In this document: in pieces, positions 57,629-60,893 of the stretch
Position numbering within the stretch: the first letter of the stretch is position 1
How the letters are laid out: the number at the start of each line of letters is the position of its first letter
Source: Acidobacteriota bacterium
Lineage (GTDB): Bacteria > Acidobacteriota > Blastocatellia > Pyrinomonadales > Pyrinomonadaceae
NCBI GenBank assembly: GCA_025463125.1
Contig: JAOAPX010000152.1
Span: forward strand, 19,816 to 83,815
Length of the DNA: 64,000 nt
Direction of reading: 5' to 3'
Translations under genes and position numbers: made by a program
The notes under the pieces: model-generated
The model's database searches: none
What the model was told of the DNA's origin: nothing
The model's input: the letters and a program-made list of their open reading frames with translations, nothing else

Positions 57629-57952
57629 TTACTTTCTCTCCGGCACTGAACCGGAAATTTTCTTGCGCGTTGTCTCGCCCGTGTCGATAACCGGAATGCC
57701 GTCCGAAACTTCCGCGTGCGGGCGCGGAATAACGTGCACAGCCGTTACGGTTCCGATGCGCCGCGCCGCCGCCGCGCCCGCATCGACAGCCGCTTTTACA
57801 GCTCCGACTTCGCCGCGCACAATCGCGGTGACGAGTCCGGCGTCAATTTTTTCGTAGCCGACGAGACGGACGTTTGCAGCCTTGACCATCGTGTCGGCAG
57901 CTTCGATCATCGCAACCATTCCCATACATTCAACCATTCCGAGTGCTTCCAT
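57629..57952 (-). CDS. Bacterial microcompartment shell protein, BMC-H (PduA/EutM-like hexamer)
   Basis: [79 protein letters not shown] is a full single BMC domain. It is followed by a ~25-aa tail. Confidence 0.93.
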
Positions 57953-58040
57953 AAATTTCTCTCTTAAAGTTTTTTATAAACGTTTATTTTATCAGCCCGT
58001 CTGAAAATAATTAAATAAACAAAATTAAAGCGCGGCGCGT

Positions 58041-58078
58041 TTTTGCTTTTTTACTTTATTTTTGCTTTTTTACTTTAA
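58041..58078. repeat. 19-nt tandem duplication spanning the stop codon of the zinc-ribbon gene
   Basis: ttttgcttttttactttat followed by ttttgcttttttactttaa (18 of 19 positions identical). Confidence 0.7.
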
Positions 58079-58531
58079 TTGAATCGCTAAAAAAACTATG
58101 ACAATCGCAAATACCATTATTACAAGCGCAACGAGCGCGAACGCCGCGCCAGACTTTTCTTCCGGTTCTTCCCAAACAATTTCGATTTCTTTTTTTTGAA
58201 AAGATTTCGCTTTATTTCGCAAAGAAGCGGCGGATTTTAATTTGGCATCTTTTATCAAATCCGGCTTTTTTTCCGCTGATCCGGCTTTTTCTATCGAAAC
58301 GGGTTTTTGCGTCTCATCGATCGCGTCCGGGACTGGAGTTTTTTCGACAACTTCTCTTTGCTGTTTGCCGGAAAACAATTCGTCTTTGATTCGGCTTTTC
58401 CCATTTTTCCCGCCGTTTTCGGAAGAATTCGGAGAAATAGCGCTTCCGCAGTTGTAACAAAACAACGCCTGCGGGCGAACATTGACTCCGCATGTTTTAC
58501 AAACCTGATTTTCGACGATAATTTCAGCCAT
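58070..58531 (-). CDS. Zinc-ribbon protein with a disordered linker and a C-terminal transmembrane anchor
   Basis: CKTCGVNVRPQALFCYNCGS (CxxC-N12-CxxC), a Lys/Glu-rich linker, and the terminal helix AAFALVALVIMVFAIVIVFLAIQLK. Confidence 0.65.
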   Translation of the reverse strand: MAEIIVENQVCKTCGVNVRPQALFCYNCGSAISPNSSENGGKNGKSRIKDELFSGKQQREVVEKTPVPDAIDETQKPVSIEKAGSAEKKPDLIKDAKLKSAASLRNKAKSFQKKEIEIVWEEPEEKSGAAFALVALVIMVFAIVIVFLAIQLK

Positions 58532-58545
58532 TTAACAATCTTAAA

Positions 58546-58595
58546 TTTGCGAGCGAAAACTATAAAAGAATTTGCGAGCGAAAACTATAAAAGAG
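58546..58595. repeat. 25-nt tandem duplication in the AldDH / zinc-ribbon spacer
   Basis: tttgcgagcgaaaactataaaaga(a/g) occurs twice back to back (24 of 25 positions identical). Confidence 0.85.
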
Positions 58596-58627
58596 TTTAC
58601 AAAATATGTCTTAAAGATGTTCGATAA

Positions 58628-60406
58628 TTATTGCTGTTTGGCAAAAATATCTTTTTCATCGCCTAAATCACGGGCTGAAGGCGTGATGATCGTTTTCGCC
58701 GTGACGTAAATTTTTTCGCCGTTTTCCAGCGCCCGCTTCACGTCGTCTTCGCTGACAAAATCCACGGCTTTCGGTTTCGCCCCGTTGCCGGAATTTTCCG
58801 GTTTCAATTCGTGTATGATTGTTTTCACGGGCGACACGGGTGAATTTGCGATTTCCGGTTTCGGAGCCGCGGTTTCTTTCGGCGCTTCGACCGCGCCGCT
58901 CGATTTTTGATTTTCGTTTAACTTGCCCGATAAAAATTTATCGACGATTGCGGCAATCGCTTCGCGTTTTGCTGATTTGTCGCCGCCGCCTGGAGTTTGC
59001 GGTGTAAAATTGCCGGAAACATTGTTTTGGGTTTTGAATTTCGCGCTTTGAGCCGAAGCGACGGGCTTTGTTTCAAAAGCGACGCGTTTGATGTCCATTA
59101 AATGAAGCGGCGAAACATTGTCGGAAGTAACGTTTCCGCCCCAGGAACCGCACCCTAAAGTCATCGAAGGCGCTAAATCCGTCGAAAACCCGATCGCTCC
59201 GTGCGTCGTCGGCGAATTTATAACTACGCGCGAAGCGGGCATCTGCGCGCCGTAAGCGATTGCCGCCGCGCGATCCTGCGTGTGCATTCCGGCTGTGTGA
59301 CCCATTCCGCCGAACTGCAAAACCTCCAAACATCTGCGCGCGCCCTGCTCGACGCCTTCAACTACGAAAAACGCCAAGGTCGGTGAAAGCTTTTCGATCG
59401 ACCAGGGGAAATCGCGCCCGATTCCGCCGCAATCGGCAAGCAGGCAGCGCGTCCCGGAAGGCACGGAAACTCCGGCTAAATTTGCGATGTATTCGGCTGA
59501 TTTTCCAACGATTTTCGGATTTAAGGTTCTTTGCGGGGTCAATAAAACTTCGGCGACTTTTTCGGCTTCCGCCTGATTTAAGAAATGTCCGCCCTGCAAT
59601 TTAAATTGTTCGCGCACCCGCGCTTCGATCGGCGCATCGACAACGACAGATTGTTCGGAAGCGCAAATCGTGCCGTTATCAAAACAGGTTCCGGTCAGAA
59701 TGTCGCCGACCGCCTTTTCGACGTTTGCAGTTCTTTCGATAAAAACCGGAACGTTTCCCGGACCGACTCCGAAAGCGGGTTTTCCCGAAGAATAAGCCGC
59801 GCGAACCAAACCGGTTCCGCCGGTTGCAAGAATGACCGCCGTGCGTTTGTGCTTCATCAGAGCTTCGGTGCCTTCGATTGTCGAATTCGTCAGGCACTGA
59901 ATCGCATCCGGCGGCAAACCTTCTCTGACGCCGACTTCGCGCATTATTCTCGCCGTTTCCGCAATCGAGCGGGCGGCTGAAGGATGCGGCGAGAGAACGA
60001 TCGTATTTCTCGATTTAACCGCGATTATAATTTTAAAGATGGTCGTCGAAGTCGGGTTCGTCGAAGGAATAATCGCCGCGACGACTCCGCGCGGCGAGGC
60101 GATTTCAACGATGCTTTCGGTTTCGCGAACGACGCCGACCGTTTTTAAGTTACGAAAATAATTCCAGACGTCTTCCGCCGCAAAACGATTTTTCTCGCGT
60201 TTGTCTTCGGCTTTGCCGAAACCGGTTTCTTCGTGAGCCATCGAACCGAGACGCGCCGATTCCGCCAGCGCGGCTTTCGCCATCGCTTCGCAGATTCGAT
60301 CGATTTTCGTCTGGTCGAACGCGGCAACAGACGTAAAAGCAAGATGCGCGGCTTCGACCGCGTCGCGCGCTTCCTGCTGTGCAATTAAATCGTTGTGTTC
60401 GGGCAT
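58628..60406 (-). CDS. CoA-acylating aldehyde dehydrogenase (AdhE N-terminal-domain type) with a ~147-aa C-terminal extension
   Basis: Collinear by eye with the ALDH half of AdhE ([68 protein letters not shown]). No Fe-ADH domain follows. Residues 446-592 form a novel tail. Confidence 0.92.
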
Positions 60407-60412
60407 CGTTTT

Positions 60413-60495
60413 TCAATTACGAATTATCAATTGCGAACTTTAAACAGTGAATCTATTTCTTTATTTGTAATTCGCAGATTGAAACTCGTAATTGT
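60413..60495 (-). repeat. Long imperfect hairpin filling the BMC-H / AldDH spacer
   Basis: Minus-strand arms caattacgagtttcaatctgcgaatt and agttcgcaattgataattcgtaattg pair over about 22 bp with small bulges. The hairpin ends 6 nt before the AldDH ATG. Confidence 0.5.
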
Positions 60496-60497
60496 TC

Positions 60498-60893
60498 CTA
60501 TTTGTTTCTCGATTTGCTTCTGTCGTTTGCCGAAATCTCGCTTCCCGCTTCGCCTGCGCCGAGTTGCCCGCGCGAGCCTCCGCCGAGCGATTTTTCGTCA
60601 GGACTGTAACCGGTCGCGCCGCCTTTCGGCAAAACCTGTTCTACTTCGCCGTGCGGTCGCGGAATTACGTGAACGCTGATAAGTTCGCCGACGCGCCGCG
60701 CCGCCGCTGCTCCGGCATCGGTTGCCGCTTTTACGGCTCCGACGTCGCCGCGAACAAAAATCGTAACGTAACCGGCGCCGATATATTCTTTACCGATTAA
60801 TTGGACATTCGCGGCTTTGACCATCGCATCAGCCGCTTCGACCGCGCCGACGAAACCTTTGGTTTCGACCATTCCGAGTGCTTCCAGGCTCAT
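60498..60893 (-). CDS. Bacterial microcompartment shell protein, BMC-H (PduA-like) with a ~40-aa C-terminal tail
   Basis: [91 protein letters not shown] is nearly superimposable on PduA. A GAGAGGA ribosome-binding site lies upstream. Confidence 0.93.

Follow-up and report, generated by a model that had tools for sequence, protein, structure and literature searches.

A four-gene shell and dehydrogenase cassette

The window analysed here, a 64-kb stretch (64,000 nucleotides) of contig JAOAPX010000152.1 from an Acidobacteriota bacterium, carries a compact bacterial microcompartment (BMC) locus. Four open reading frames on the minus strand, spanning 57629-60893, encode a first BMC-H shell protein (H1), a CoA-acylating aldehyde dehydrogenase (AldDH), a zinc-ribbon protein with a C-terminal membrane anchor, and a second BMC-H protein (H2), in that gene order. 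The same four genes had been picked out in an initial annotation made by reading the bare sequence, and all are present where it placed them. These genes, together with two segments of the AldDH that are central to the interpretation, are listed below; the abbreviation EP stands for encapsulation peptide.

60498-60893, minus strand: H1, a BMC-H protein of 131 aa (PF00936, E=3.8e-29; EutM-like NF012018, 2.2e-38)
58628-60406, minus strand: CoA-acylating AldDH of 592 aa (PF00171; TIGR02518, E=7.7e-170 over aa 5-459)
58913-58972, minus strand: EP-like amphipathic helix of the AldDH, aa 479-498 (mean conservation 0.73 in 80 orthologues)
58631-58771, minus strand: terminal domain of the AldDH, ~47 aa, aa 546-592 (conservation 0.77 in 80 orthologues)
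58070-58531, minus strand: zinc-ribbon tail-anchored membrane protein of 153 aa (Pfam zinc-ribbon at E~3e-4, below the curated cut-offs)
57629-57952, minus strand: H2, a BMC-H protein of 107 aa (PF00936, E=2.8e-28; EutM-like in NCBIfam)

The two BMC-H proteins flank the AldDH, and both possess the canonical hexamer domain (aa 5-80 in H1) with the KAAN and standard PRPH interface motifs. EutM and PduA are the closest relatives of H1 in the Protein Data Bank (PDB). H1 has a 'KEYIGAG' pore loop and a C-terminal tail of ~40 aa that is Gly/Ser-rich and basic (aa 92-131; 60501-60620). In H2, the pore loop reads 'KIDAG' rather than KIGAG, which places an aspartate where H1 and the main-locus BMC-H of related genomes (described below) carry a glycine, and the C-terminal tail (57632-57688) contains a motif that is kept even in distant, expanded cassettes (L071 and L121). 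Together, the pore aspartate and the conserved tail suggest a specialised role for H2. At the sequence level, H2 is 68% identical to H1 and 74% identical to the main-locus BMC-H, and the best 120 matches of a protein search with H2 are all orthologues at 87-94% identity, with no paralogues among these.

Other BMC components were sought across the whole 64 kb. A hidden Markov model (HMM) of BMC-H finds no third BMC-H there. A pentameric vertex protein (BMC-P) is not detected either, whether the probe is a crude HMM, the acidobacterial BMC-P of L071, EutN of E. coli, or any of six pentamers from main loci of the ACI type, a BMC type discussed below. Likewise, no iron-dependent alcohol dehydrogenase, Pta, class II aldolase, or 2-hydroxyacid dehydrogenase is found with ACI main-locus proteins and E. 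coli EutG, EutD, and EutS as probes. Across all BMC probes, matches are confined to the AldDH and the pair of BMC-H genes. PduL-type phosphotransacylase (PF06130) and BMC-T had no models of their own in this search, in which the BMC-H HMM would reveal a BMC-T. The absences listed in the initial annotation thus hold over the whole window for the pentamer, Pta, and alcohol dehydrogenase, and PduL lay outside the probes used. In place of the complete core of a canonical metabolosome (PDU- or EUT-like), the window has an AldDH and BMC-H proteins only.

The AldDH and its bipartite C-terminal tail

The catalytic domain of the AldDH occupies aa 1-455 (59042-60406) and contains the catalytic Cys248 within the sequence 'GTICASEQ'. 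Its best solved relative is 5J78, an acetylating acetaldehyde dehydrogenase (492 bits). At least 120 full-length orthologues are found at 77-86% identity, many of them from named Pyrinomonadaceae, and an AldDH with 100% identity, annotated adhE, belongs to an entry named 'MAG: Acidobacteria bacterium' (MAG, metagenome-assembled genome).

The catalytic domain is followed by a tail of 137 aa without family assignment. In 80 orthologues, this tail consists of a variable linker (aa 456-478; column conservation 0.18), a conserved helix, a second variable linker (0.38), and a conserved terminal domain, with both linkers appearing disordered. The helix at aa 479-498 is assigned as EP-like because it is conserved and predicted to be helical; a ranking by hydrophobic moment does not single this segment out. 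In a single-sequence AlphaFold2 model, which is of low confidence overall, the only confident elements are a helix at aa 477-493, the most confident of all, and a short helix within the terminal domain. The helix consensus shares the motif R-E-E-[LI]-[IA]-x-[LI]-[LV] with the C-terminus of the aldolase encoded in the main loci of related genomes (ISFTREELIELLSQAAKLG), and the EP motif of that aldolase (TREELIELLSQAAKL) resembles the consensus of the AldDH helix. This shared motif fits delivery of the two enzymes into the same shell.

The terminal domain has no match in Pfam or the PDB. A HMMER search of 1.84e9 representative sequences finds it almost exclusively in fragments of AldDHs of this family, and in no other architecture. 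It does align with aa 4-39 of EutQ from E. coli K-12, at 33% identity, a pairwise E of 6e-5, and an hhalign probability of 56%. An HMM built from 78 distinct AldDH tails matches only EutT (aa 3-40) and EutQ (aa 8-37) among 25 proteins of the eut region; these matches are weak (11-12 bits), and the EutQ N-terminus scores above 2000 of 2000 shuffles. The terminal domain, EutQ, and EutT have in common the pattern [IV]-x-x-D[IV]...GE...IITP-AR[DE]. Yang et al. 2025 (PMC12487888) suggest that EutQ helices H1-H2 bind the EutM/EutL shell interface. On the strength of this proposal and of the weak alignment, the terminal domain of the AldDH may be a shell-binding module, serving as a second targeting or docking element beside the helix.

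Conservation of the cassette and a fuller satellite form

With one genome taken for each GTDB species, a scan with the AldDH yields 80 related loci at 71-83% identity, including five on Mb-scale chromosomes. The closed chromosomes OZ244585.1, OZ244558.1, and OZ244725.1 carry the cassette. All 80 come from genomes named as Pyrinomonadaceae, Pyrinomonadales, Blastocatellia, or otherwise Acidobacteriota, and these names, like those of the orthologues, bear out the earlier guess that the window belongs to an Acidobacteriota-like genome. Local HMM mapping places the genes in the order H-AldDH-Zn-H in 64 of the 80 loci. Most of the remaining loci are truncated by contig ends, and a few genomes lack the second BMC-H. 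The flanks are also syntenic in the relatives: one side has IMPDH and a RodZ-like gene, the other two vWA genes and type II secretion system (T2SS) genes. Within ±10 kb of the cassette, a pentamer triplet, an aldolase, or a 2-hydroxyacid dehydrogenase is found in none of the 80 loci.

A fuller form of the satellite is present in one genome (L071 11778-15923) and in 44 soil-metagenome contigs (L082-L125; for example, L100 5319-8257 and L121 3424-7921). Its genes encode, in order, H1, AldDH, BMC-P, a secreted vWA protein, an ACT-domain protein, the zinc-ribbon protein, a DUF711 protein, and H2. The ACT protein (PF13740) carries an N-terminal amphipathic extension of ~60 aa, and it may, together with the DUF711 protein (PF05167), represent unrecognised cargo. 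Only remnants of the BMC-P and DUF711 genes are left in locus L081 (11019-11189 and 12861-12950). Considered alongside the fuller form, these remnants suggest that the four genes of the window are what is left of a larger satellite, reduced to its core.

The ACI type and its main locus in related genomes

A BMC type with an AldDH encoded apart from its main locus has been described in Acidobacteria. In the 2021 catalogue of BMC loci, the ACI type has 125 members, all of them Acidobacteria and mainly of subdivisions 4 and 6 (Sutter et al. 2021, Nat Commun 12:3809, PMC8217296). By the rule of that catalogue, a main locus has one or more BMC-H together with one or more BMC-P. The ACI main locus encodes a pfam00596 aldolase with a C-terminal EP, a hydroxyacid dehydrogenase, and proteins of unknown function, one of which is ~80 aa long with an N-terminal EP and conserved cysteines (PMC8217296). 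The AldDh is encoded in a satellite locus, carries an EP near its C-terminus followed by a domain of ~50 aa, and is sometimes accompanied by a BMC-H; Supplementary Data 2 notes a fourth BMC-P occasionally beside the AldDh and a further BMC-H 'with an AldDh' (PMC8217296). The BMC-H classes named for this satellite are H_fuchsia and H_royalpurple; in the catalogue, the ACI AldDh has that of MIC3 as its neighbour, and the ACI aldolase is described as distinct, with HO/MIC3 closest (PMC8217296). A literature search on BMCs in Pyrinomonadaceae and Blastocatellia and on later ACI work found nothing beyond this catalogue.

Searching metagenomes with a BMC-P alignment returned many H-P-P-P clusters; a scan of viral_contigs with a BMC-P alignment gave no matches. 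Loci L152 and L160 are textbook ACI main loci, with an aldolase ending in '...EIRLTYRELSALIEDAIRSLR', a BMC-H, and three BMC-P, joined in L160 by a 2-hydroxyacid dehydrogenase. The BMC-H of these loci is 98-99% conserved among independent contigs and represents a separate paralogue that shares 77-79% identity with H1 and ~70% with H2. A protein search with the main-locus BMC-H led to three types of genomic context, none on a chromosome known to carry a window-type cassette, and in two of the three the pentamer triplet adjoins ruvA/ruvB. Main loci of the L162 type (GC content 0.565; RuvB only 65% identical) and of the L172 type (the high-GC catalogue form, with GC 0.63-0.70 for other such contigs) come from other lineages and were rejected as evidence on the lineage of the window.

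Main loci do occur in genomes that carry the cassette. The species representative L036 has a window-type cassette with its flanks and, at the edge of the stretch, a ruvB whose product is intein-split and truncated; an exact match of the neighbouring hydrolase, taken with ±10 kb, leads from there to a main locus (L178/L179). In JALZKH010000076.1 and JALYEJ010000002.1, a cassette without the second BMC-H and a main locus lie on the same contig. The distance between the two is 13.5 kb in JALZKH010000076.1, where the main locus lies past the same vWA pair and T2SS genes as in the window, and the full order is H-AldDH-Zn, two vWA genes, T2SSF/E, two genes, ruvB, a 300-aa gene, ruvA, rex, and the main locus; JALYEJ010000002.1 has the same order. 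The latter (L178 1020-4497) encodes a class II aldolase of 271 aa, a BMC-H of 93 aa, three BMC-P, and a Cys-rich protein of 112 aa. In the MAG Pyrinomonadaceae bacterium TGS_ACI4 (GCA_026129865.1), the complete four-gene cassette is on JAHCHG010000010.1 (L034) and the main locus on JAHCHG010000002.1 (BMC-H P0454), both stretches having a GC content of 0.481. The H1, AldDH, and H2 of this cassette are 88%, 78%, and 89% identical to those of the window, respectively.

The L178-type BMC-H falls in a 90% cluster of 498 members that includes proteins of Pyrinomonadaceae bacterium. The contexts of the clustered BMC-H genes begin with ruvB, Rce1, ruvA, (Rex), a protein of ~100 aa, and the aldolase (262-266 aa), and continue with the BMC-H (92 aa), three BMC-P, a protein of ~89-107 aa, LemA, TPM, and dnaX. 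RuvB of one such contig (L182) is 79% identical to that of L036, which puts these contigs in the same family-level lineage as the cassette-bearing genomes.

Main loci of this compact Pyrinomonadaceae/Blastocatellia type (L178, L181-L199, L201) adjoin ruvA, with rex adjacent in many, and are often interrupted by inserted genes (Uma2, TPR/CarboxypepD_reg, DUF2059, TonB_C). Their 89-112-aa protein possesses an N-terminal helix and a C-terminal ...KPCDHCSMCNS[RLH]GF sequence, and their ~100-aa protein has a transmembrane segment, a coiled coil, and a Pro-rich region. No 2-hydroxyacid dehydrogenase (pfam00389/02826) is found next to main loci of this type; the enzyme is present in the high-GC main loci (L160, L172-L177), indicating variation within the ACI type. 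A different BMC type is represented by L131, L134, L135, L137, L140, and L149 (GC 0.33-0.38), which have tandem BMC-P pairs and no BMC-H nearby.

The locus as a probable ACI satellite

On this evidence, we are highly confident that the locus in the window is the AldDh satellite of an ACI-type BMC in a Pyrinomonadaceae (subdivision 4) genome. The hosts of the cassette (Pyrinomonadaceae, Pyrinomonadales, Blastocatellia) belong to subdivision 4. A pfam00171 acylating AldDh is encoded apart from the main locus, with no BMC-P in the 64 kb and no pentamer triplet within ±10 kb in the 80 relatives. The tail has the ACI architecture, with the EP-like helix at aa 479-498 and a terminal domain of 47 aa at aa 546-592, separated by a variable linker. 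The main locus, for its part, is seen in relatives (JALZKH010000076.1, JALYEJ010000002.1, and TGS_ACI4) and not in the 64 kb of the window.

The locus type is therefore already known from the 2021 catalogue and is not a new kind of compartment. The initial annotation had raised the possibility that the four-gene arrangement was novel, which does not survive the match to the named ACI AldDh satellite, unusual tail and BMC-H included. It had also put forward that the locus is either the satellite of a main locus located elsewhere or a stripped-down aldehyde-handling compartment. The first reading is supported in the relatives, where a main locus has a BMC-P triplet, an aldolase, and a BMC-H that is the closest paralogue, 80% identical to H1. 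The second is not supported, given the catalogue match and the presence of main loci in cassette-bearing genomes.

Several points weigh against the satellite assignment. The view of the window genome is confined to 64 kb, and its main locus is inferred from relatives at 75-78% AldDH identity; in TGS_ACI4, the pairing of cassette and main locus rests on MAG binning. ACI compartments are themselves known from genes alone. In the Pyrinomonadaceae lineage, phosphotransacylase, alcohol dehydrogenase, and 2-hydroxyacid dehydrogenase, candidates for the recycling of CoA and NAD+, are found in neither the cassette nor the main locus. A search for Rex boxes and shared k-mers in the regions upstream of the cassette and the main locus revealed no common motif and no Rex box. 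Finally, the catalogue text on ACI makes no mention of a zinc-ribbon gene (PMC8217296).

By analogy with the aldolase-based PVM and GRM5 metabolosomes, we infer that the products of satellite and main locus co-assemble, with the aldolase feeding the AldDH. The main locus would supply the vertices (three BMC-P), the main facet protein (the third, highly conserved BMC-H), and the signature aldolase. In the lumen, the aldolase would split a ketose or deoxy-sugar 1-phosphate into DHAP and a short aldehyde, for example lactaldehyde or glycolaldehyde. The AldDH would enter the same shell by means of its C-terminal amphipathic helix and probably of the EutQ/EutT-like module as well, and would turn the aldehyde into acyl-CoA, using CoA and NAD+ and yielding NADH, before any aldehyde escapes. 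H1 and H2 would be accessory hexamers, co-expressed with the AldDH, that join the facets and probably alter permeability (through the acidic pore of H2) or docking. The catalogue takes the general view that satellite shell genes tune permeability or docking (PMC8217296).

The ACI satellite type occurs in hundreds of soil Acidobacteria, and the locus carries little weight as a discovery claim. Its value lies in annotation, as genes labelled 'adhE' and 'eutM' in Pyrinomonadaceae MAGs are to be read as ACI satellite loci, in a host phylum that is among the most abundant in soil. It also offers handles for reconstitution, namely the four-gene core, the compact aldolase-H-P-P-P locus by ruvA/rex, the similar targeting helices of aldolase and AldDH, the EutQ/EutT-like terminal module, and the conserved zinc-ribbon membrane protein.

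The zinc-ribbon protein

The zinc-ribbon protein begins with a CxxC...CxxC ribbon (aa 8-32; 58436-58510), continues with a variable charged linker and a juxtamembrane motif, KLKSAAxLRxKA...VWEE (aa 97-123), and ends in a transmembrane helix (aa 129-151; 58073-58147). Orthologues are encoded at the equivalent position in 76 of the 80 related cassettes, and the gene is also found in the expanded cassettes. Among the orthologues, only the ribbon, the juxtamembrane motif, and the transmembrane segment are conserved. As a conserved member of the cassette, the gene is a minor addition to the published picture of ACI, as is the likeness of the AldDH terminal domain to EutQ and EutT. The protein may serve as a membrane tether, or it may be a hitch-hiker tied to the adjacent vWA genes.

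That the protein is a vWA-linked membrane protein without a role in the compartment, so that the BMC cassette really consists of three genes, is a serious possibility that nevertheless falls short of probable. It would account for the small secreted vWA gene that lies directly upstream of the zinc-ribbon gene in ~20 relatives, for the two vWA genes that follow the cassette in the window and in relatives, for the silence of the catalogue text, and for conservation being limited to three segments of the protein. However, 76 of 80 genomes have the gene between those of AldDH and H2 and in the same orientation, and distant lineages retain it in their expanded cassettes. L178 has it even though H2 is missing there, and it is still inside the cassette in L001, where other genes part the cassette from the vWA pair. 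A more ambitious proposal, which we consider unlikely, is that the protein tethers or nucleates the ACI organelle at the cytoplasmic membrane. Its cytosolic zinc ribbon would then bind the shell, for example at the conserved H2 tail, or the EutQ-like module of the AldDH, giving a membrane-anchored metabolosome with a bipartite cargo signal composed of an EP and a shell-binding domain.

Alternative readings of the cassette

The cassette might also be a BMC type of its own, building a second organelle that merely co-occurs with the aldolase/pentamer locus and whose fuller form is H-AldDH-BMC-P-vWA-ACT-Zn-DUF711-H. This expanded form has BMC-H, BMC-P, and candidate cargo (the ACT protein with its amphipathic extension and the DUF711 protein) and would qualify as a main locus under the H + P rule of the catalogue, and cassette and main locus have no upstream motif in common. 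We nonetheless regard two separate organelles as very improbable. The aldolase locus has no AldDH and the cassette has no aldehyde-generating enzyme, which makes the two loci complementary, and the EP motifs of the two enzymes are alike. The window-type cassette has lost its pentamer, of which a remnant persists in L081, and so has no means of closing a shell by itself; in the catalogue, both loci are handled as a single consolidated locus (PMC8217296).

Least likely of all, if by a small step, is a stand-alone, pentamer-less mini-compartment, an aldehyde-oxidising shell or tube that H1, H2, and the AldDH would build by themselves, independent of any main locus. In its favour, the 64 kb contain neither a BMC-P nor a signature enzyme, the ±10 kb around the cassettes of the 80 relatives contain neither a pentamer triplet nor an aldolase, all four genes are under strong purifying selection, and the main locus is seen in relatives rather than directly in the window genome. 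Against it, a pentamer triplet and an EP-bearing aldolase make up a main locus in two genomes that carry the cassette, such loci are frequent on contigs named Pyrinomonadaceae, ACI genomes in general show this split according to the catalogue (PMC8217296), and an AldDH without an aldehyde-producing partner in its shell would bring no obvious benefit. It is similarly remote that the window genome has no pentamer locus at all. The ACI satellite thus remains the preferred reading of the cassette.

Flanking genes and intergenic regions

Two vWA genes on the plus strand (55390-57515) converge on the cassette. On the other side, a divergent gene of RodZ type with an HTH_25 domain (61012-61944) is followed by IMPDH (62134-63603). 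Family matches agree with the initial annotation on both flanks, the convergent vWA genes as well as the divergent rodZ/guaB block. Two noncoding features border the cassette.

57531-57576, no strand assigned: hairpin with a perfect 19-bp stem and A6/T6 runs at its sides, at the boundary between the cassette and the vWA genes
60894-61011, no strand assigned: divergent intergenic region upstream of H1

The 114-nt region containing the hairpin has a folding free energy of -32 kcal/mol (z=-5.15), and 0 of 200 shuffles are as stable. As the stem is perfect and A6/T6 runs lie on both sides, the hairpin could act in both directions and is predicted to be a potential bidirectional intrinsic terminator. 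A terminator had been proposed earlier at 57531-57578; its place between the cassette and the vWA genes stands, and its stem, given as 13 bp, is 19 bp long. A second, small and GC-richer hairpin with an 8-bp stem (57603-57626) lies directly 3' of the stop codon of H2 and is located upstream of the large, AT-rich one.

The promoter of the cassette is presumably located in 60894-61011. A promoter-like, near-consensus site for the RodZ-like gene, TTGACA-18-TATATT, lies on the plus strand at 61021-61050. Some k-mers of the region between H1 and the RodZ-like gene are kept in up to 62 of 74 related genomes.

Insertions of two kinds were noted in and around related cassettes. A signal-peptide vWA gene (~200-240 aa) is found between the AldDH and zinc-ribbon genes in ~20 of the loci L002-L081 (L041 11683-12372, L058 11714-12349); the window has, instead of this small inserted gene, the two larger vWA genes that converge on the cassette. 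LAGLIDADG inteins split IMPDH in a Pyrinomonadaceae chromosome of 4.27 Mb (L001 5482-8403) and RuvB in Aridibacter-like MAGs (L178 7419-9998). The IMPDH of the window has no intein.

Comparison with known systems

The closest known system is the ACI AldDh satellite, with which the window shares the acidobacterial host, an AldDh encoded off the main locus, the EP with a tail domain of ~50 aa, and a BMC-H beside the AldDh. The main loci of related genomes also resemble ACI in their EP-bearing class II aldolase, single BMC-H, BMC-P triplet, and small Cys-rich protein with an N-terminal helix. The lineage of the window differs from the catalogued form in several respects. BMC-H genes around the AldDh are described as occasional in ACI, whereas two flanking copies are the rule here, and the occasional fourth BMC-P is not in the window. 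The main locus of this lineage is compact, lacks an adjacent 2-hydroxyacid dehydrogenase, lies next to ruvA/rex, and is often interrupted.

Other BMC types share individual elements with ACI. The PVM or PVM-like and GRM5 types, which are based on fuculose/rhamnulose-phosphate aldolase, combine a pfam00596 class II aldolase with an acylating AldDH, as ACI does. In contrast, their full core (phosphotransacylase and others) is encoded at a single locus and their hosts are of other phyla, and the ACI aldolase is distinct according to the catalogue. MIC3 and HO have BMC-P triplets like ACI, and their hosts are Planctomycetes and Myxobacteria; their AldDh does not lie on an H-flanked cassette of its own with an ACI-like tail.

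Among individual enzymes, the AldDH of the window has the fold and catalytic cysteine common to EutE-, PduP-, and AdhE-type dehydrogenases, its best solved relatives being 5J78 and 3K9D, and it falls nearer the AdhE/TIGR02518 branch than PduP (174 bits to 4C3S). EutE and PduP carry their EPs at the N-terminus, whereas the AldDH of the window has a bipartite C-terminal tail. A similar reversal applies to the EutQ/EutT-like module, which forms the N-terminus of EutQ and EutT and the C-terminus of the AldDH described here.

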